This document shows positions 2,830-20,238 of a stretch of 64,000 nucleotides of DNA, piece after piece (position 1 is the stretch's first letter; each line of letters opens with the position of its first letter). The position numbers and the translations under genes were made by a program. Source of the stretch: Eledone cirrhosa (taxonomy: Eukaryota). The DNA is taken from NCBI GenBank assembly GCA_964016885.1, contig OZ024764.1, positions 9,300,001-9,364,000 of the forward strand, read 5' to 3'. The notes under the pieces were generated by a model. It did no database searches. It had not been told where the DNA came from and saw nothing but the letters and a program-made list of their open reading frames with translations.

Positions 2830-3784
2830 TCAAGATATTCGGTCAGAGAAAGATATGACTCCCCAGTTTGCGTTAATTAACCAATTGGCGTCAGTGTTGG
2901 ACATTTGTGTCTCTAGCCCCTCCTCCAGTCCGACCACCGTGTCGGACTTGAGTGTTCTCAGGGCACACAGCGGAGCAGGGTGGAAACCTCGTAGGGCGTC
3001 GCAGAAAGGGGTCGTCGTGTCCCAGTTAATGTCTCCGACCAGCTTCCGGTAGTTGAGGTCCCCCTTGAAGATGATAAGGTCACTTTGGGCAATGTCGGCG
3101 TAGAGGTCCGGACATCGGGTTTTCATCTGGTCGAACGTGAAGGGCGACGTCCAGAAGTCGTGCACAACGAACTTCCACGAGCCGTTTTTCAGCCGCTCGG
3201 CCCACCTATGACCGAAAGACGCTGCCACTTTGTTGGTGGTGGTGGTGTTGGTGGAGGAAGGGTCAGAAAGAGAAGCAGAGACTGCAGCGGCGGTGGCGGG
3301 GCTGTTAGACTGCTGCAGCCGGGCCAGAAAAGAGTGGAAGTCCTGTGGCGTCGTGTCTGACACGAACCAGGGGAAGGGCTTGCCGTGGAGATGGATGGTC
3401 GAGGTGAGGCCGGACGAGATAAGGAATTCGGCGAGGCACAAGTCGGTGACCAGTTCATAGCCAGAATTGTCCAAAACTATGTCCACCCTTCCAGCAGGAC
3501 GACACTCACAGCCGCCTCCACCACCTCCACCACTACTACCATGCAGTAAATTCCACACGGCTTTGCTGTCATCGACCAGGATGTTGTTATGGAGGTCACG
3601 AAGGGTGTCCAACAGGCTGTACTCATATTTCACCTCGAGTCCGGCAGATATGGACAGGTCAACCTTGTTACTCCACAATGAGATCTGCATAAGTTGCATG
3701 AAGGCCGCCTGCAGTTCAGTCTTCGAGGAACAGGAAGTGGTGAGGTGCATCCTGGTCAGCAACTCGTTCAGAAACAACAACAAC
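2830..3784 (-). CDS. ARMT1: ARMT1/DUF89 damage-control phosphatase, coding exon 2 (catalytic motifs, stop)
   Basis: Motifs SLWSNKVDLS, DIVLDNSGYELVTDL, PWFVSDTT, FKGDLNYRKL and RTLK. Polypyrimidine-TAG acceptor at 3785. GG+G restores Gly in frame with exon 1, giving a predicted 631-aa protein. Confidence 0.95.
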
Positions 3785-5252: not shown

Positions 5253-8200
5253 TACCTACACGACCACATTACAGCGTGGACTGTGTGTTTGTTTGTCGTG
5301 ACACCTACACGGCTACATTACAGCGTGGACTGTGTGTGTTTTTGTTGTGACACCTACACGGCCACATTACAGCGTGGACTGTGTGTGTTTTTTTGTTGTG
5401 ACACCTACACGACCACATTACAGCGTGGACTGTGTGTTTGTTTGTTGTGACACCTACACGGCCACATTACAACGTGGACTGTGTGTTTGTTTGTCGTGAC
5501 ACCTACACGGCTACATTACAGCGTGGACTGTGTGTGTTTTTGTTGTGACACCTACACGACCACATTACAGCGTGGACTGTGTGTGTTTTTTTGTTGTGAC
5601 ACCTACACGACCACATTACAGCGTAGACTGTGTGTTTGTTTGTCGTGACACCTACACGACCACATTACAGCGTAGACTGTGTGTTTGTTTGTCGTGACAC
5701 CTACACGGCCACATTACAGCGTGGACTGTGTGTTTGTTTGTTGTGACACCTACACGGCTACATTACAGCGTGGACTGTGTGTTTTTTTGTTGTGACACCT
5801 ACACGACCACATTACTGCGTAGACTGTGTGTTTGTTTGTTGTGACACCTACACGGCCACATTACAACGTGGACTGTGTGTTTGTTTGTCGTGACACCTAC
5901 ACGGCTACATTACAGCGTGGACTGTGTGTGTTTTTGTTGTGACACCTACACGGCCACATTACAGCGGGGACTGTGTGTGTTTTTTTGTTGTGACACCTAC
6001 ACGACCACATTACAGCGTGGACTGTGTGTGTTTTTTTGTTGTGAGACCTACACGACCACATTACAGTGTGCACTGTGTGTTTGTTTGTCGTGACACCTAC
6101 ACGGCCACATTACAGCGTGGACTGTGTGTTTGTTTGTCGTGACACCTACACGGCCACATTACAGCGTGGACTGTGTGTTTGTTTGTTGTGACACCTACAC
6201 GGCTACATTACAGCGTGGACTGTGTGTTTTTTTGTTGTGACACCTACACGACCACATTACAGCGTAGACTGTGTGTTTGTTTGTTGTGACACCTACACGG
6301 CCACATTACAACGTGGACTGTGTGTTTGTTTGTCGTGACACCTACACGGCTACATTACAGCGTGGACTGTGTGTGTTTTTGTTGTGACACCTACACGGCC
6401 ACATTACAGCGGGGACTGTGTGTGTTTTTTTGTTGTGACACCTACACGACCACATTACAGCGTGGACTGTGTGTGTTTTTTTGTTGTGACACCTACACGA
6501 CCACATTACAGTGTGCACTGTGTGTTTGTTTGTCGTGACACCTACACGGCCACATTACAGCGTGGACTGTGTGTTTGTTTGTCGTGACACCTACACGGCC
6601 ACATTACAGCGTGGACTGTGTGTTTGTTTGTCGTGACACCTACACGGCCACATTACAACGTGGACTGTGTGTTTGTTTGTCGTGACACCTACACGGCTAC
6701 ATTACAGCGTGGACTGTGTGTGTTTTTGTTGTGACACCTACACGGCCACATTACAGCGTGGACTGTGTGTGTTTTTTTGTTGTGACACCTACACGGCCAC
6801 ATTACAGCGTGGACTGTGTGTTTGTTTGTCGTGACACCTACACGGCCACATTACAACGTGGACTGTGTGTTTGTTTGTCGTGACACCTACACGGCCACAT
6901 TACAGCGTGGACTGTGTGTTTGTTTGTCGTGACACCTACACGGCCACATTACAGCGTGGACTGTGTGTTTGTTTGTCGTGACACCTACACGGCCACATTA
7001 CAGCGTGGACTGTGTGTTTGTTTGTCGTGACACCTACACGGCCACATTACAGCGTGGACTGTGTGTTTGTTTGTCGTGACACCTACACGGCCACATTACA
7101 TCGTGGACTGTGTGTTTGTTTGTCGTGACACCTACACGGCCACATTACAGCGTGGACTGTGTGTTTGTTTGTTGTGACACCTACATGGCCCCATTACAGC
7201 GTGGACTGTGTGTTTGTTTGTTGTGACACCTACACGGCTACATTACAGCGTGGACTGTGTGTTTGTTTGTCGTGACACCTACATGGCCACATTACAGCGT
7301 GGACTGTGTGTTTGTTTGTCGTGACACCTACACGGCCACATTACAGCGTGGACTGTGTGTTTGTTTGTCGTGACACCTACACGGCCACATTACAACGTGG
7401 ACTGTGTGTTTGTTTGTTGTGACACCTACACGGCCACATTACAGCGTGGACTGTGTGTTTGTTTGTCGTGACACCTACACGGCCACATTACAGCGTGGAC
7501 TGTGTGTTTGTTTGTTGTGACACCTACACGGCCACATTACAGCGTAGACTGTGTGTTTGTTTGTCGTGACACCTACACGGCCACATTACAGCGTAGACTG
7601 TGTGTTTGTTTGTCGTGACACCTACACGGCCACATTACAACGTGGACTGTGTGTTTGTTTGTCGTGACACCTACACGGCCACATTACAGCGTGGACTGTG
7701 TGTTTGTTTGTTGTGACACCTACACGACCACATTACAGCGTGGACTGTGTGTTTGTTTGTTGTGACACCTACACGACCACATTACAGCGTGGACTGTGTG
7801 TTTGTTTGTTGTGACACCTACACGGCCACATTACAGCGTGGACTGTGTGTTTGTTTGTTGTGACACCTACACGACCACATTACAGCGTGGACTGTGTGTT
7901 TGTTTGTTGTGAGACCTACACGACCACATTACAGCGTGGACTGTGTGTTTGTTTGTTGTGACACCTACACGACCACATTACAGCGTGGACTGTGTGTTTG
8001 TTTGTTGTGACACCTACACGGCCACATTACAGCGTGGACTGTGTGTTTGTTTGTTGTGACACCTACACGACCACATTACAGCGTGGACTGTGTGTTTGTT
8101 TGTTGTGACACCTACACGACCACATTACAGCGTAGACTGTGTGTTTGTTTGTCGTGACACCTACACGGCCACATTACAGCGTAGACTGTGTGTTTGTTTG

Positions 8201-10620
8201 TCGTGACACCTACACGGCCACATTACAACGTGGACTGTGTGTTTGTTTGTCGTGACACCTACACGGCCACATTACAGCGTGGACTGTGTGTTTGTTTGTT
8301 GTGACACCTACACGACCACATTACAGCGTGGACTGTGTGTTTGTTTGTTGTGACACCTACACGACCACATTACAGCGTGGACTGTGTGTTTGTTTGTTGT
8401 GACACCTACACGGCCACATTACAGCGTGGACTGTGTGTTTGTTTGTTGTGACACCTACACGACCACATTACAGCGTGGACTGTGTGTTTGTTTGTTGTGA
8501 CACCTACACGACCACATTACAGCGTGGACTGTGTGTTTGTTTGTTGTGACACCTACACGACCACATTACAGCGTGGACTGTGTGTTTGTTTGTTGTGACA
8601 CCTACACGGCCACATTACAACGTGGACTGTGTGTTTGTTTGTTGTGACACCTACACGGCCACATTACAGCGTGGACTGTGTGTTTGTTTGTTGTGACACC
8701 TACACGACCACATTACAGCGTGGACTGTGTGTTTGTTTGTTGTGACACCTACACGGCCACATTACAGCGTGGACTGTGTGTTTGTTTGTCGTGACACCTA
8801 CACGGCCACATTACAGCGTGGACTGTGTGTTTGTTTGTCGTGACACCTACACGGCCACATTACAACGTGGACTGTGTGTTTGTTTGTCGTGACACCTACA
8901 CGGCTACATTACAGCGTGGACTGTGTGTTTGTTTGTCGTGACACCTGCACGGCCACATTACAACGTGGACTGTGTGTTTGTTTGTCGTGACACCTGCACG
9001 GCCACATTACAGCGTGGACTGTGTGTTTGTTTGTTGTGACACCTACATGGCCCCATTACAGCGTGGACTGTGTGTTTGTTTGTTGTGACACCTACACGGC
9101 TACATTACAGCGTGGACTGTGTGTTTGTTTGTCGTGACACCTACACGGCCACATTACAGCGTAGACTGTGTGTTTGTTTGTCGTGACACCTACACGGCCA
9201 CATTACAACGTGGACTGTGTGTTTGTTTGTCGTGACACCTACACGGCCACATTACAGCGTGGACTGTGTGTTTGTTTGTTGTGACACCTACACGACCACA
9301 TTACAGCGTGGACTATGTGTTTGTTTGTTGTGACACCTACACGGCCACATTACAGCGTGGACTGTGTGTTTGTTTGTTGTGACACCTACACGACCACATT
9401 ACAGCGTGGACTGTGTGTTTGTTTGTTGTGACACCTACACGACCACATTACAGCGTAGACTGTGTGTTTGTTTGTCGTGACACCTACACGGCCACATTAC
9501 AACGTGGACTGTGTGTTTGTTTGTCGTGACACCTACACGGCCACATTACAGCGTGGACTGTGTGTTTGTTTGTTGTGACACCTACACGACCACATTACAG
9601 CGTGGACTGTGTGTTTGTTTGTTGTGACACCTACACGGCCACATTACAGCGTGGACTGTGTGTTTGTTTGTTGTGACACCTACACGACCACATTACAGCG
9701 TGGACTGTGTGTTTGTTTGTTGTAACACCTACACGACCACATTACAGCGTGGACTGTGTGTTTGTTTGTTGTGACACCTACACGACCACATTACAGCGTG
9801 GACTGTGTGTTTGTTTGTTGTGACACCTACACGGCCACATTACAGCGTGGACTGTGTGTTTGTTTTTTGTGACACCTACACGGCTACATTACAGCGTGGA
9901 CTGTGTGTTTGTTTGTCGTGACACCTACACGACCACATTACAGCGTGGACTGTGTGTTTGTTTGTTGTGACACCTACACGGCCACATTACAGCGTGGACT
10001 GTGTGTTTGTTTGTCGTGACACCTACACGGCCACATTACAGCGTGGACTGTGTGTTTGTTTGTCGTGACACCTACACGACCACATTACAACGTGGACTGT
10101 GTGTTTGTTTGTTGTGACACCTACACGGCCACATTACAGCGTGGACTGTGTGTTTTTTTTGTTGTGACACCTACACGGCCCCATTACAGCGTGGATTGTG
10201 TGTGTTTTTTTGTTGTGACACCTACACGACCACATTACAGTGTGCACTGTGTGTTTGTTTGTCGTGACACCTACACGGCCACATTACAGCGTGGACTGTG
10301 TGTTTTTTTGTCATGACACCTACACGGCCACATTACAGCATGGACTGTGTGTTTGTTTGTCGTGACACCTACACGGCCACATTACAGCGTGGACTGTGTG
10401 TTTGTTTGTCGTGACACCTACACGGCCACATTACAGCGTGGACTGTGTGTTTGTTTGTCGTGACACCTACACGGCCACATTACAGCGTGGACTGTGTGTT
10501 TGTTTGTCGTGACACCTACACGGCCCCATTACAGCGTGGACTGTGTGTTTGTTTGTCGTGACACCTACACAGCCACATTACAGCGTGGACTGTGTGTTTG
10601 TTTGTCGTGACACCTACACG
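5253..10620. repeat. 49-bp minisatellite, about 109 copies, expanded inside an RTE-A 3'UTR in the ARMT1 intron
   Basis: Unit GTGACACCTACACGGCCACATTACAGCGTGGACTGTGTGTTTGTTTGTC. Flanks 5066-5253 and 10620-10752 are RTE-A 3'UTR sequence. Confidence 0.95.
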
Positions 10621-10992: not shown

Positions 10993-11572
10993 TATTTATC
11001 TAAAAACCTTCATTAGTTAAGTTATGTTCCAAACACCAACAGTGTCTTTCATTAGAAATATGGTAATGAAAGGGTTAAAGTGTTTATATTTATCTAAACA
11101 CCTTCCATCATAATTTTATGTAAGAACCTTTGTTAAGTTATGTTCCAAACACCAACAGTGTCTTTCATTAGAAATATGGTAATGAAAGGGTTAAAGTGTT
11201 TATATTTATCTAAACACCTTCCATCATAATTTTATGTAAGAACCTTTGTTAAGTTATGTTCCAAACACCAACAGTGTCTTACATTAGAAATATGATAATG
11301 AAAGGGTTAAAGTGTTTATATTTATCTAAACACCTTCCATCATAATTTTATGTAAGAACCTTTGTTAAGTTATGTTCCAAACACCAACAGTGTCTTTCAT
11401 TAGAAATATGATAATGAAAGGGTTAAAGGGTTTATATTTATCTAAAAACCTTCCATCGTAATTTTATGTAAGAACCTTTGTTAAGTTATGTTCCAAACAC
11501 CAACAGTGTCTTTCATTAGAAATATGGTAACGAAAGGGTTAAAGTGTTTATATTTATCTAAACACCTTCCAT
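10993..11572. repeat. 116-bp tandem repeat, about 5 copies
   Basis: GTTATGTTCCAAACACC recurs at 116-bp spacing. The same unit occurs inverted at 55030-55910. Confidence 0.93.
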
Positions 11573-12253: not shown

Positions 12254-13194
12254 CCGTCGACAGCCGGCTGGGAAGACAGCAATGAGTTGTGTTTCTGTTG
12301 TTTAAAGACGTCCAACGTGTTGAGTAAGTCAGTCAATTCCAGTGTTTCCTGCACCCTCCTGTACATGTAGCATTCAACATAGAGCCACGCGGAAGTGAAC
12401 CACGACACACTACCACCACCACCACCAGCGGCGTCAGTATCAGCATCAGTTCCATCACTGCCCTCAGGGCCAGCATCAGAATCGGCACCGATACCAGTAT
12501 TAGCACCATCACTGTGGCCAGCATCAATACCAGTGCTACCACTATTACCGGAACCAGTTCCAGCCCCGCCACTACAACCAGCACCAGTACCAACACCACC
12601 ACTGCGAAGAGTAGCAATACCAACTCCCTGACTGCCACCAACACCAGCACCAGTACCAACACCACCACTGCGAAGAGTAGCAATACCAACTCCCTGACTG
12701 CCACCAACACCAGCACCAGTACCAACACCACCACTGCGAAGAGTAGCAATACCAACTCCCTGACTGCCACCAACACCAGCACCAGTACCAACACCACCAC
12801 TGCGAAGAGTAGCAATACCAACTCCCTGACTGCCACCAGCACCAGCACCAGCACTAACACCGCCACAAGCATCACTGCCGGAAGCTGCTAAATCCATCAT
12901 CTCCATTAAATAGTTGTTCCACAGGTCAACATCAGTGCGGTGATCTTTGAAGGGTTTGAGAGGTTTGTCTGTTTGCACCTCGTTGCGCAGTTTTGACATG
13001 TGGCCTATGATGATCTTCAGTTCGCCACAACCTTGATCTCCGTGTTCAGCCTTCACCTCGTCCTTCATACGGCACAGGGTGTCGGCAATCTTGCTCAGGA
13101 TCACGGGAAGCCTGTCCTTTATCGTCGTGTATGCAAAGGAGTTTCTGTATTTGGCAGACAGGGGTTTCCCTTTCGGTGTTGTCTCGTCAGACAT
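12254..13194 (-). CDS. ARMT1: ARMT1/DUF89 damage-control phosphatase, coding exon 1
   Basis: ORF MSDETTPKGKPLSAKYRNSFAYTTIKDRLPVILSK...WFTSAWLYVECYMYRR...DVFKQQK matches the ARMT1 N-terminus. GG|GTAAGT donor at 12254/12253 (phase 2). Upstream polypyrimidine-CAG acceptor at 13214 implies a further non-coding 5' exon. Confidence 0.95.
12577..12850 (-). repeat. In-frame 66-bp coding repeat (GGSQGVGIATLRSGGVGTGAGV x4) within ARMT1 exon 1
   Basis: Visible in both DNA and translation. Confidence 0.93.
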
Positions 13195-15239
13195 TGTGGT
13201 TTGAATGGTGAGGCTGTGGAGAGAAAGAAGAAAACGTTAACTATATTTATATATGGTAGACAGGGGCTATCTACTTTCGGTGTTGTCTCGTCAGACATTG
13301 TGGTTTGAATGGTGAGGCTGTGGAGAGAAAGAAGAAAACGTAACTATATTTATATATGGTAGACAGGGGCTATCTACTTTCGGTGTTGTCTCGTCAGACA
13401 TTGTGGTTTGAATGGTGAGGCTGTGGAGAGAAAGAAGAAAACGTAACTATATTTATATATGGTAGACAGGGGCTATCTACTTTCGGTGTTGTCTCGTCAG
13501 ACATTGTGGTTTGAATGGTGAGGCTGTGGAGAGAAAGAAGAAAACGTAACTATATTTATATATGGTAGACAGGGGCTATCTACTTTCAGTGTTGTCTCGT
13601 CAGACATTGTGGTTTGAATGGTGAGGCTGTGGAGAGAAAGAAGAAAACGTAACTATATTTATATATGGTAGACAGGGGCTATCTACTTTCGGTGTTGTCT
13701 CGTCAGACATTGTGGTTTGAATGGTGAGGCTGTGGAGAGAAAGAAGAAAACGTAACTATATTTATATATGGTAGACAGGGGCTATCTACTTTCGGTGTTG
13801 TCTCGTCAGACATTGTGGTTTGAATGGTGAGGCTGTGGAGAGAAAGAAGAAAACGTAACTATATTTATATATGGTAGACAGGGGCTATCTACTTTCGGTG
13901 TTGTCTCGTCAGACATTGTGGTTTGAATGGTGAGGCTGTGGAGAGAAAGAAGAAAACGTAACTATATTTATATATGGTAGACAGGGGCTATCTACTTTCG
14001 GTGTTGTCTCGTCAGACATTGTGGTTTGAATGGTGAGGCTGTGGAGAGAAAGAAGAAAACGTAACTATATTTATATATGGTAGACAGGGGCTATCTACTT
14101 TCGGTGTTGTCTCGTCAGACATTGTGGTTTGAATGGTGAGGCTGTGGAGAGAAAGAAGAAAACGTAACTATATTTATATATGGTAGACAGGGGCTATCTA
14201 CTTTCGGTGTTGTCTCGTCAGACATTGTGGTTTGAATGGTGAGGCTGTGGAGAGAAAGAAGAAAACGTAACTATATTTATATATGGTAGACAGGGGCTAT
14301 CTACTTTCGGTGTTGTCTCGTCAGACATTGTGGTTTGAATGGTGAGGCTGTGGAGAGAAAGAAGAAAACGTAACTATATTTATATATGGTAGACAGGGGC
14401 TATCTACTTTCGGTGTTGTCTCGTCAGACATTGTGGTTTGAATGGTGAGGCTGTGGAGAGAAAGAAGAAAACGTAACTATATTTATATATGGTAGACAGG
14501 GGTTATCTACTTTCGGTGTTGTCTCGTCAGACATTGTGGTTTGAATGGTGAGGCTGTGGAGAGAAAGAAGAAAACGTAACTATATTTATATATGGTAGAC
14601 AGGGGCTATCTACTTTCGGTGTTGTCTCGTCAGACATTGTGGTTTGAATGGTGAGGCTGTGGAGAGAAAGAAGAAAACGTAACTATATTTATATATGGTA
14701 GACAGGGGCTATCTACTTTCGGTGTTGTCTCGTCAGACATTGTGGTTTGAATGGTGAGGCTGTGGAGAGAAAGAAGAAAACGTAACTATATTTATATATG
14801 GTAGACAGGGGCTATCTACTTTCGGTGTTGTCTCGTCAGACATTGTGGTTTGAATGGTGAGGCTGTGGAGAGAAAGAAGAAAACGTAACTATATTTATAT
14901 ATGGTAGACAGGGGCTATCTACTTTCGGTGTTGTCTCGTCAGACATTGTGGTTTGAATGGTGAGGCTGTGGAGAGAAAGAAGAAAACGTAACTATATTTA
15001 TATATGGTAGACAGGGGCTATCTACTTTCGGTGTTGTCTCGTCAGACATTGTGGTTTGAATGGTGAGGCTGTGGAGAGAAAGAAGAAAACGTAACTATAT
15101 TTATATATGGTAGACAGGGGCTATCTACTTTCGGTGTTGTCTCGTCAGACATTGTGGTTTGAATGGTGAGGCTGTGGAGAGAAAGAAGAAAACGTAACTA
15201 TATTTATATATGGTAGACGGGGGCTATCTACTTTCGGTG
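13171..15239 (-). repeat. 103-bp tandem repeat, about 20 near-identical copies, each containing the ARMT1 3' splice acceptor, 5'UTR and first 8 codons
   Basis: ACATTGTGG (ATG on the minus strand) at 13191, then 13295 and every 103 bp to 15149. Confidence 0.96.
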
Positions 15240-15528
15240 ATGTCTCACCACCCACTCGCTGTAAATGAGGTTGGTGTTAGGAAGGGCATCCAGCTGTAGA
15301 AAACCCGCCAGACAGTCCTATGCGAGCAAGACAATCACTCTTGCCTCAAGTGGGAAAACTCCCGTCCAAACCCATGCAAGCGTGGAACACGGACGTTAAA
15401 CGCTGATGATGATGATGATGATGATATACATATATATATAGGTAAAAGGTAAACAGAAATAACAACACCATCGGTACAGTATATGGAAGGGATATATTAG
15501 GTTAACGCTTGATATAGCAGGAAGAGGG

Positions 15529-15564
15529 TCTTAACGTTTTGGACGCTAGTCCTTCATCAGAAGA
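15529..15564 (-). ncRNA. Minimal hammerhead ribozyme, family A, degenerate (GAAA changed to AAAA)
   Basis: TCTT-CTGATGA-aGGACtagcGTCC-AAAACGTT-AAGA, within a repeat at about 15440-15660. Confidence 0.55.
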
Positions 15565-16505
15565 ATGAGAAATAAGATAGATTGAGGGGACGGGCCGGTT
15601 GCAATTAGAAAAAAATGTCTTTAGATAAAAATAACAGGTCCATTCATGTTGACATCCCCATACACACACACATATATATACCAGAGCTTAGCCGTCAGGG
15701 TCCTGAAACTTTTCATATATATATATAATAGAGTTTCTATTTTTGGCACAAGGCCACCGATTACCCCAGTGCACCACTGGTACTTGATTTTATCGACCTC
15801 GTAAGGATGAAAGGCAAAGTTAACCTCGGCGGGATTTGAACTCAGAACGCAAAGGGGCATAACTATGCTGCAAAACAGTGTCTGACGCTCTACCGATAGT
15901 GACAAATCACTGCCCTATATATATATAATAGGTTCGAGGAAGGAACGAGGGAGCACCCCCTCTCTGTGCTCCCAAGGAGAAGGGTTGCACACTTTTTTCG
16001 GGGGTGTGTGCGACCCCCCAAGGCGCCTCCTCTCTATTGAGGATTTTGTTATAATTTTATTTTTTGTTATATTTGATTTTATTTTTATATATTGTTATTG
16101 CCTCCTCCCTATTGAGGACGCCTTGTTTTGTAAACTCCCCCCATTGTACTTGTCCCACTTTTGATGCCCTGGTGGCAAATAAAAGAAACATATATATAAT
16201 AGGTTCCAGCGCATTAGCCTCGCCATCACCCGAGGTAACACTGCCAGTGTACTGGCTTGCCCAAAAAATCAGTACCCCTCGTTGCTGTCTTTTACTCTGG
16301 TGTTGGCTCGGTTGTTCACCCCTTCCTTTATATTTTCTTTAATATTGCAACATTAAAGGAATATATCCTTCTGAAAAAATCGCGAGTAATTTATAATTGT
16401 TTCTACTTTTAGCACAAGGCCAGCAATTATCCCAGTGCATTACTGGTACTTTATTTTATCGACCCCCGTAAGGATGAAAGATAAAGTTAACCTCGGCGGG
16501 ATTTA

Positions 16506-18225
16506 CCCCAGGCATGTCCAAATCTCACAGAAAATGTCGTCTGGTTGAAATACCGATATGTTATTTATTTAAATATATTTTGTGAAAATATACCCAGATT
16601 TAGTATATATATAAATATATATATACATACGTATACATACATATATATGTATGTATACATACACACGCACACATATATATATATATATATTATATATATA
16701 TATATGCATGTATACATACATTCATATATGTATACATGTATATATATTTGTAAAAACTGTGAAATTTATGTGTGGTAAACTTATATGGTTTGTATAAGAG
16801 AAGCCCTATAGTTTATGATGATTACTGATAAGTGATATATATATATATATATATAGATTGTTATAGAAATAGTGGACACCTTCCGTTACCTGGGTGACAA
16901 AATCAGCAGTGGGGGAGGGTGCTCTGAAAGTACAGTAGCTAGAGTCAGAACTGGATGGAAAAAGTTCAGAGAGCTTATACCACTATTGGCCGCTAAAGGG
17001 TTCTCTCTAAAAATGAAAGGCAGGTTGTATGATGCCTGCATACGAACAGCAATGTTGCATGGCAGTGAGACCTGGGCATTGTGTGCAGAGGATATACGCA
17101 GACTGGAGAGGAACGAAGCTTGCATGCTCCGCTGGATGTGTAATAGTAATATACGTGAATGGCAAAGCATAAATGAACTGAGAAATTAGGAATAAGAGGG
17201 ATCAGATGTTGTTTACTCGAGAGAAGACTACGTTGGTATGGTCAGGTGATGCGCATGAAAGACGACAGCTGTATAAAAAAGTGCAGGGCGATCAAAATAG
17301 ACGGTAGCTACGGAGTAGGCAGACCCAGAAAAACCTGGGACGACTTGGTAAATTCCGACCTCACACACTTACATCTCTCCAAGACAATGTCACTGGACCG
17401 AGATCTTTGGCGCTACACAGTCATACAGAAGACCCGCTTTGCCTAAATACAAAGCGAAACCTACAGTCAGTAGGCACCTCTAACAAAATAAACCCCCCCC
17501 CCCGTTCCAATACCCCCACCCCATTAAATGTGAAGTTATGTTGGTACCACAACATCCAGTCCGAAACAAATGAGGCCGTGTAGGTGTCACGACAAAAAAA
17601 AAACACACAGTCCTCGCTGTAATGTGGCCGTGTAGGTAACACGGTAAAAACCTCCCAATCCACACTGTAAACGTGGTTGGTGTTAGGAAGGGCATCCAGC
17701 CGTAGAAAATCCGCCAGACAGTCCTATGCGAGCAGGACAACCAATCTTGCCTCAAGTGGGAAAACTCCCGTCGAAACCCATGCGTGGAATATGGACGTTA
17801 AATGATGATGATTGTTAGTATATATACATATATATACTAACAAAATTAAATTAAAGATGTCATGTCTGAGAATATCAGAAACATGCGCCATAGAAATATA
17901 TATATATAACGAAGGAATTGTGGTAAGGAACCAGATGGACCACAACGCACAAGAGTACTCTATACTTAGGGTAGTAGAGTGGGTTTTCCTATTATATATA
18001 TATATATATATTCGGTGACTTGCGTATACATACATACAAATATATATATATATAAATTTTATTTACTGTTGTATAAAAGGAAATATAATAACACAATGCT
18101 TACAGAACGAAAGCACAAATAAATATACTAAATCTGGGTACATTTTCACAAAATATATTTAAATAAATAACATATCGGTATTTCAACCAGACGACATTTA
18201 CTGAGATATTTGGACACGCCTAGGG
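16506..18225. mobile_element. Non-autonomous TIR DNA transposon (piggyBac-like, TTAA end) with a nested RTE
   Basis: About 105-bp inverted repeats at 16506-16610 and 18123-18225, starting CCC. TTAA at 18226-18229 and TTTA at 16502-16505. Confidence 0.7.
16857..17812 (+). mobile_element. 5'-truncated RTE LINE family A (ORF2 C-terminus, 3'UTR, GAT tail)
   Basis: FRYLGD...GWKKFRELIPLL...AMLHGSETW...RLRWYG...GRPRKTW, frameshifted near 17185. Confidence 0.92.
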
Positions 18226-18490
18226 TTAAACGACAATGACAACAACGCTATATAAATATATATATATATACACAAGTAATTTGCTCACATGTATCTATAA
18301 ATGTTTCTCTGGAGATAAATTATACTCCAGTATTCCACAACCAAGCATTCGGCAAAAAGGTTTCTTTACAGTAAGACGACCAACAACTTGGTAATGGCGG
18401 TACTACAGAGTTATCTCCCTTGCTTGTTTTATGTATTAAATAAATGGTCCCTTGCATTTCATTGATGTAATAAACAACATAAGATAATTA

Positions 18491-18553
18491 TTTCATTTAC
18501 CAGTGGTGTCTTGTAGGCAGATATTTATATTTGTCTTCAGTCGTCAGAATGAA
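18491..18553 (-). ncRNA. Hammerhead ribozyme, family D, degenerate (GAAA changed to GACA)
   Basis: TTCATT-CTGACGA-stem II-GAC-ACCACTGGT-A-AATGAA; homologous to 33133-33192. Confidence 0.55.
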
Positions 18554-18952: not shown

Positions 18953-19279
18953 TGGCTTAGTGGTTAGAGCATTGGCCTTGCAATCGAAAGGTTGTGAGTT
19001 CAATTCTCAGACCAGGTGATGTGTTGTTTCCTTGAGCAAGACACTTTATTTCACATTGCTCCAGTTTACTCAGCTGTAGAAATGAGATGATAGGGACTGG
19101 GGTCCATATCATTCCACTGCAAAGTGGTCGTGGAGGTGCCACGGCAAAAAAGGACCTAGCACTCACTGTAAATGAGGTTGGTGTCAGGAAGGGCATCCAG
19201 CTGTAGAAATCAAGCCAGAATCAGTTCCCGTTCCACCCTTGCAAGCAGGGAAAAGCGGACGTAAAATGATGATGATGAT
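18953..19279 (+). mobile_element. tRNA-derived SINE family 1 (A/B boxes, CORE-like domain, RTE-derived tail)
   Basis: A-box TGGCTTAGTGG, B-box GAGTTCAATTC, CCTTGAGCAAGACACTT core and (GAT)n tail. Copies at about 36551-36915, 39536-39877 (-), 45811-46160, 58378-58710 and 62036-62342. Confidence 0.85.
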
Positions 19280-20238
19280 AGTGTGTTCTGTTATTATTTC
19301 TAGCAATATTATAACAATATGACCCTCCCCAAGTATAACAATATATATATACATATATATATATAACGAAGGAAATGTGGTAAGGAACCAGATGGACCAT
19401 AACGCACCAAAGTACTCAATACTTAGGGTAGTAGAGTGGGTAATAGGAACGAGTAGGACCCCGACGGCTGGTGCATTATGGTCCATCTGATTCCTTACCA
19501 CATTTCCTTCGTTATATATATATATGTATATATATATTGTTATACTTGGGGAGGGTCATATTGTTATAATATTGCTAGAAATAATAACAGAACACACTAT
19601 CATCATCATCATCATCATCATCATCGTTTAATGTCCATCTTCCACGCTAGCATGGGTTTGACGGGTGTTGTCCCACTTGAGGCAAGGTTCATCGGGTGAC
19701 CGTGTCTCGCTCGTATAGGACTATCTGGCAGGTTTTCTACAGCTGGATGCCCTACTTAACACCAACCACATTTACAGTGTGGGACTGGGAGGTTTTTACC
19801 GTGTTGCCTACACGGCCACATTACAGCGTGGACTGTGTGTTTTTTTTGTCGTGACACCTACATGACCTCGATCTCATTATCTCATTTATTTGAACTGGAT
19901 GTTGTGGTACCAACTTTACAGAGAGAGGGTGGTGTTGGTGGGAGTGGGAGGATAGGGTAGGGGTAGTGGATTGGGGTGTATATTTGGTTAAGAGGTGCCT
20001 ACTGACTGTAGGTTTCGCTTTGTACATAGGCAAAGCGGGTCTTCTGTATTACTGCGTAGCGCCAAAGATCTCGGTCCAATGACTATATATATATATATAT
20101 ATATATATATGCAGAGGTTATATTTAATTTGTTGGGATTCAACAAGCTTAAAAATTTTATAACTAATATAAAGCACTCAACAAGTTTTTTTTTTTTTTTT
20201 TTTCGGGTATGTCAATATTTATTTATAAACCAAATCTG

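Follow-up and report, generated by a model that had tools for sequence, protein, structure and literature searches.

The best-described relatives of the repeat reported here are the "mirage" minisatellites of amphioxus, which occur in the globin genes BflGb6 and BflGb9 and in Adh3, troponin C, and PGBD5 (PMC3087553, PMC3902484). In BflGb6, 3 to 6 units, 81 to 100% alike, are each composed of an intron end and an exon start (PMC3087553). According to these two reports, many mirage units keep their AG or GT, splicing proceeds regularly, and the boundary units stay outside homogenisation (PMC3087553, PMC3902484). "Exon stuttering" in chicken, according to the accessible part of bioRxiv 10.1101/2025.09.16.676548, concerns 236 introns (190 of them on dot chromosomes) with 1 to 44 copies, a median exon part of 36 nt, and a median span of 1,751 bp, and its length variation was measured. 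Two human genes supply further cases. In the CBS variant 844ins68 an acceptor is duplicated, the distal copy is used, and a normal mRNA results (PMC2630376, PMC1802585, of which one calls the sites donors in its available text); in the 37-bp VNTR of F7 intron 7, as told in the available part of PMC1557585, only the one of several identical splice sites that lies next to the real exon is used, the others being functional but silent. Among the matches listed in our literature searches on octopus splice-site minisatellites, start-codon VNTRs, acceptor VNTRs, and duplicated-acceptor experiments, none described the ARMT1 locus, and the first three topics likewise yielded no mirage containing a start codon. 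With most subscription papers outside the coverage of these searches, this argues only weakly that no such description exists.

The sequence analysed here, referred to as the window, is a stretch of 64,000 bases of Eledone cirrhosa, and all coordinates are positions within it. On its minus strand the boundary between intron 1 and exon 2 of an ARMT1-like gene is repeated head to tail; Tandem Repeats Finder reports a period of 103, 20.4 copies, and 99% matches. A pyrimidine tract with CAG occurs 20 times (last bases at 15172, 15069, and so on to 13318 and 13214), and after each CAG comes a 19-nt leader and then an ATG (15152 through 13298 and 13194). Units 1 to 19 (13283..15239, minus strand) are 103 bp long and consist of GTTAC, the pyrimidine tract and CAG, then 44 nt that repeat the exon start exactly, its ATG among them, and finally a weak donor-like AAA/GTAGAT. 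Unit 20, the gene-proximal one (13179..13282, minus strand), has 104 bp, and from sequence and contig mapping its acceptor borders the real exon, the AG ending at 13214. The array spans 2.1 kb, amounts to 19 extra copies, and carries TATATAAA in every unit about 33 nt before the CAG. Sixteen of the 20 units are identical; the four variant sites fall in units 1, 8, 17, and 20, so that both edge units have private variants. The variant of unit 20, seen in the assembly only, is an extra A that creates GTTAAC (13236..13241, minus strand, with the A at 13237, position -24); it is the single indel among the four and falls in the predicted branch site, the only match to yUnAy between -15 and -60. GTTAAC thus occurs once in the array and GTTAC 19 times. 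These counts bear out the original prediction, which had read the locus as an approximately 20-fold amplified ARMT1 start-exon boundary in 103-bp units, the proximal one having 104 bp and GTTAAC. Its claim that only the proximal copy keeps a branch-site motif stands in so far as GTTAAC is unique, but not in the sense of a sole branch site, since GTTAC keeps the conserved U and A with a branch-like A at -24.

With its tandem unit, authentic boundary, local origin, and homogenised core with divergent edges, the array belongs to the mirage or exon-stuttering type. As in the available descriptions of the amphioxus mirages, the unit spans an intron 3' end and an exon 5' part (BflGb6), the splice signals are kept, and the boundary units diverge; normal mRNA is described in amphioxus, and ARMT1 is represented by one normal spliced contig, from another sample than the array reads. 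Unlike the amphioxus cases as described, the ARMT1 array has 20 near-identical units, a start codon within the unit, a position in a 5' leader intron, and a mollusc rather than a chordate as host. Exon stuttering, going by the accessible text, resembles it in that a lateral exon part and its splice site are copied into the intron and that neighbouring introns are full of unrelated local arrays. The dimensions are comparable (exon part 44 nt against a median of 36; 19 extra copies against 1 to 44; 2.1 kb against a median of 1,751 bp), but stuttering concerns chicken and mostly its dot chromosomes, whereas the length of the ARMT1 array is known from the depth of one sample. CBS 844ins68 likewise duplicates an intron/exon junction with identical 3' splice sites, but it has two copies only, and in the text available the choice between them is ascribed to G runs between the sites, whereas the ARMT1 unit has no G run on its sense strand. 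The F7 repeat, as far as described there, lies on the donor side and the ARMT1 array on the acceptor side. Particular to ARMT1 are the start codon in the unit and the single branch-site base by which the copy bordering the real exon differs.

The gene is ARMT1-like, as originally named. Pfam PF01937 is recognised in both coding exons (scores of 42.3 and 209.6 bits, where the curated threshold is 25), the two-exon product is identical to the Octopus sinensis ARMT1-like protein P0063 at 310 of 454 aligned residues (68%), and for the first 105 residues the best of 14 matches among 26 candidates is again O. sinensis ARMT1-like (79%). Metal-dependent phosphatase activity would be expected of the product of such a housekeeping gene. 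The PF01937 domain of the ARMT1/DUF89 damage-control phosphatases is present in both coding exons, with an extra Gly-rich insert of 142 residues that is absent from the O. sinensis protein; part of it is an in-frame 66-bp array of 4.4 copies in exon 2 (12577-12866, minus strand). On the minus strand the gene starts with a non-coding first exon (18289..18385, donor CAT/GTGAGC), whose 5' limit is a contig end and not a mapped start, and a native uORF of 17 codons is predicted in this normal 5' leader (18295..18348, minus strand). Intron 1 (13214..18288), a GT-AG intron of 5,075 nt, holds the 19 upstream acceptor copies. Exon 2 (12254..13213, 960 nt) comprises the 19-nt leader, the ATG at 13194, and the first coding part of ARMT1, and ends at the donor CGG/GTAAGT; the last coding exon, to the stop codon, lies at 2830..3784 (Pfam E 8e-62), and its predicted join to exon 2 keeps the frame and aligns gap-free to P0063.

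The first exon and intron 1 were recognised from one contig of run X4, which comes from a sample (S2) of the same study as the DNA-like runs of sample S1 and amounts to 88 million letters. This 502-nt contig (depth 17.9) matches 12870-13217 and then continues with 93 unlike letters, which map once in the window, at 18293. Its nucleotides 406-502 cover exon 1 without difference, the join reads CAT/GTGAGC ... CCACAG/CCTCAC, and the contig is identical to the locus over 344 exon-2 bases (12870-13213) and 97 exon-1 bases. From the 5,075-nt GT-AG join we infer that X4 is very likely RNA. The contig is unbroken through 13199, where the repeat loop breaks the exon contig of run X1, so the assembled form consists of exon 1, the 44 shared bases once, and unique coding sequence; it carries no extra unit, as one contig of the other sample in which assembly would drop rare forms. 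The assembly word is shorter than the 44 shared bases, so which acceptor was used cannot be read from the contig, and steady-state RNA does not separate "not spliced" from "spliced and degraded". The view that the array sites copy a used acceptor is upheld by this contig, which enters at CAG/CCTCAC with the ARMT1 ORF following, and the objection that transcription might start downstream of the array falls away with a spliced exon upstream of it, at 18385-18289. X4 has no contig on the unit-specific stretch 13218-13300 nor on the intron at 18134-18280, missing cover being weak evidence by nature. Its visibility floor is a depth of 3 to 4.5 (3 being the lowest X4 contig depth shown and 4.5 following from usual assembler settings). 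Constant use of the first acceptor would have given an expected unit depth of 340, and a uniform choice among the acceptors one of 170. Taken at face value, the missing cover would mean fewer than 0.17-0.25 upstream units per transcript, still compatible with 14-20% use of the next-to-last acceptor.

That the array might be missing from raw reads, an objection foreseen in the original prediction, did not hold, as it is present in read-derived contigs of X1. Over 12870-13300 this run yields only two contigs: one of 391 nt (depth 7.8) with the unique exon, ending at 13199, and one of 133 nt (depth 146.9) that forms a single loop of 103 words with the majority branch form and shows none of the four single-copy variants, the extra A of unit 20 included. 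Their depth ratio of 18.8 against a mean of 18.7 expected from the assembly is a rough figure, from single-contig depths in what is possibly the assembled sample. A second haplotype of sample S1 is seen near exon 1 (18142-18492), with 6 differences in a 351-nt contig of X1 and 4 in a 265-nt contig of X2; the depths of these contigs, 4.2 and 3.0, put single-haplotype depth at about 4. The loop then represents about 35-38 copies over both haplotypes, where 37 would be expected with two haplotypes like the assembled one, and 20 with a single unit on the second. This suggests that both S1 haplotypes carry the array with about equal unit number, and by depth arithmetic no length variation is seen between the two haplotypes of this one sample. 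The RAD-seq runs X5 and X6 have 0 reads on 12870-13300 and thus have no bearing on array length.

A possible source of the unit lies at the distal array end. At 15207..15246 (minus strand) there is a decayed older copy of the coding start, which matches the true exon, beginning at codon 4 (13185-13148), in 32 of 40 aligned columns; the homology of the flank and the beginning of each unit come from it. Neither 20,000 shuffles nor the 24,658 other 61-mers of the window include one that scores as high, for a pair picked by eye; the right-hand homology alone is weaker, its score being reached by 24 of 20,000 shuffles and 1,433 of 61,761 window 40-mers. Shared microhomology at the array ends had been proposed earlier; the homology is there, but an alignment of this length exceeds junction microhomology. 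Next to the relic, at 15255..15420 (minus strand), lies a dispersed repeat with many blastn copies within the window (the best four at 96-97% over about 160 nt), which we label SINE-like by inference. The relic reads best as an older duplication of the exon start that was truncated by this dispersed repeat, ending at about 15255. Under such a scheme the duplication would have decayed in the intron and been cut short by the repeat; recombination or slippage between relic and true exon start, about 104 bp apart, could then have used the shared GAGACA.CACCGAAAG to give a 103-bp unit, which may have been amplified recently with the edge units left outside homogenisation. Other copies of the array unit within the window do not go beyond chance-level matches of at most 30 nt. 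For the window, and for the two X1 contigs on 12870-13300, the array is of local origin and not a dispersed repeat. Local amplification is common here: eight long-period arrays cover 10,732 of the 64,000 bases of the window, and five of them lie in or just behind ARMT1, one inside exon 2.

Several other features of the window may be recorded in passing. A 108-bp array of 8 copies (1787-2642) starts about 190 nt past the stop codon of ARMT1 and may lie in the 3' UTR. Most of intron 2 is taken up by 109 copies of a 49-bp unit (5254-10620), which resembles a piece of a dispersed repeat family found elsewhere in the window. The 116-bp arrays at 11016-11572 and 55049-55871 have near-identical consensus units 44 kb apart, and this repeat is therefore dispersed as well as tandem. 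Broken reverse-transcriptase-like ORFs on the minus strand (40431-42026, 33538-34320, and 51489-51830) are, from motifs recognised by eye, probably decayed LINE copies, and a long inverted repeat seen by eye at 19240-19590 has arms of about 150 nt around 19440-19460.

Taken together, we consider it probable that the array is a mirage minisatellite formed by local tandem amplification of the junction between intron 1 and exon 2 of ARMT1. In this reading it is likely neutral, since splicing likely passes over the 19 upstream copies in favour of the copy bordering the real exon. Exon context is the probable cause of this last-copy choice, ahead of the branch site, mainly by analogy with the published cases. 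The last copy alone leads into the full 960-nt exon, whose donor is strong (8 of 9 consensus positions matched); after an upstream copy come no more than 44 exon bases and a weak donor-like site (5 of 9) before the next pyrimidine tract begins. The superior branch site of unit 20 would then be a probable helper and probably not the main cause, and rare mis-spliced messages would hold uORFs and likely be degraded. Several points count against this reading. The RNA evidence consists of one contig, from a sample whose animal may lack the array. An exon of 960 nt is long for exon definition, and older duplication experiments with gamma-globin, as told in the available part of PMC1557585, had the proximal copy used in one study and the opposite in another. 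A search for purine enhancers after +45 gave no clear contrast (purine content and GAR count 0.50 and 3 against 0.42 and 2). Masking of the upstream sites by RNA structure was rejected, since in RNA folding the region from branch to AG is about equally open (unpaired 0.72 upstream, 0.65 proximal). Use of AAA/GTAGAT as the donor of a mini-exon, or recursive splicing, was rejected as well: no such joint is listed for the contigs on 12870-13300, and the join of exon 1 to exon 2 rebuilds no donor.

An explanation that survives less well, and that we regard as unlikely, is that the branch site itself decides: an A would have been lost from TTAAC in an upstream copy, amplification would have spread this weakened and tolerated copy, and unit 20 would win through its intact TTAAC. 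The original suggestion that the 1-nt difference neutralises the decoys thus stays unproven. Unit 20 alone fits yUnAy fully (TTAAC matches 5 of 5 positions; GTTAC matches 4 of 5, missing the first pyrimidine and keeping U and A), it alone has the UAAC core bound by SF1, and the one indel lies, suggestively, in the branch site predicted for the unit in use. Its position at -24 falls within the range of 21-34 nt that, in the available text of PMC2367711, holds for 83% of the clones of human branch points, but the U and A retained by GTTAC are, in these human data, the better conserved positions. Neither do crude U2 duplex energies, calculated with artificial clamps, favour the proximal site (-6.6, against -7.9 upstream and -16.2 for an ideal box), and the intron 2 acceptor of ARMT1 has no yUnAy or TAAC match between -15 and -60. 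The extra A is absent from the X1 contigs, which show none of the single-copy variants. A private variant is present in the other edge unit, unit 1, too, and in any case PMC3087553 reports that edge units of mirages escape homogenisation.

The effect of the array would be different if the upstream acceptors leaked. Eighteen of the 19 upstream ATGs open an ORF of 36 aa (two of them with one residue changed) with its stop just inside the next ATG region, and the 19th (13298) opens an ORF of 59 codons (13119..13298, minus strand) that runs into the true ORF in another frame and ends at 13121; the 36-aa uORF originally ascribed to every unit thus holds for the former and not for the last. An in-frame N-terminal extension from the upstream ATGs was rejected, as every upstream ORF stops. 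An A stands at -3 before every array ATG, which gives the uORF ATGs the same context as the true one. By the general rules of translation and NMD, a uORF with good ATG context and a stop far upstream of the next exon junction leads to silencing or NMD. With such uORFs, stops, and ATG context, use of an upstream acceptor would likely silence or destabilise the message rather than tune it in graded fashion.

It is quite unlikely, in our judgement, that the upstream copies are leaky poison acceptors, with some transcripts spliced upstream, gaining uORFs, and lost to NMD, so that ARMT1 output would drop as copy number rises. All 20 tracts and CAGs are intact, and with 18 of 20 the array tracts share the top pyrimidine score among the 40 top-ranked YAG sites of intron 1, the next best having 17. 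Transcription also reaches the upstream copies first, and steady-state RNA would contain little of any degraded form. Against these points stand the assembled X4 form without any unit, the 35-38 copies against 37 expected, by which S1 shows no length variation, and the published mirages, which the available parts of PMC3087553 and PMC3902484 report without aberrant mRNAs. Still less probable, and indeed very doubtful, is the extended form of this idea, in which loss of one branch-site base licensed the expansion and a residual leak into 19 decoys acts as a copy-number rheostat, each unit diverting more ARMT1 pre-mRNA to NMD-bound uORF forms hidden from steady-state RNA. Were this so, minisatellites would have a new means of setting gene dosage. 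The original suggestion that copy number, through a chain of uORFs, tunes expression finds no backing in the sole RNA-like contig, which carries no unit.

Slightly less probable again, and improbable on the whole, is that the RNA evidence does not apply, because the X4 animal has no array or X4 is a processed DNA copy, in which case X4 would not inform on the effect in carriers. X4 and the DNA-like runs do come from different samples (S2 and S1), and the library kind of X4 is not on record. The array seems, however, to be present on each of two haplotypes with 4-6 differences near exon 1, which points to a shared array; the X4 contig equals the locus at all of its 344 exon-2 and 97 exon-1 bases, and contigs of X1-X3 continue from exon 1 into the intron. 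That each unit is a small promoter or the array an expansion made by the assembler is hardly credible: TATATAAA recurs in every unit and X1 is possibly the assembled sample, but TA runs abound throughout the window, the site functions as an acceptor, as the spliced exon upstream demonstrates, and a read-derived word depth in X1 that matches about 20 units argues against an assembler's expansion.

Arrays of this kind can mislead annotation, since they produce spurious first exons and uORFs. The practical value of the ARMT1 array is that of a clean natural test: tract, AG, and 44 exon bases are common to its 20 acceptors, so that the only differences are a single branch-site base and the downstream context; it could help to separate branch-site strength from exon context in the choice among identical 3' splice sites. 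For the known class of splice-site minisatellites, the ARMT1 array adds a case from a mollusc, and a probably harmless one.
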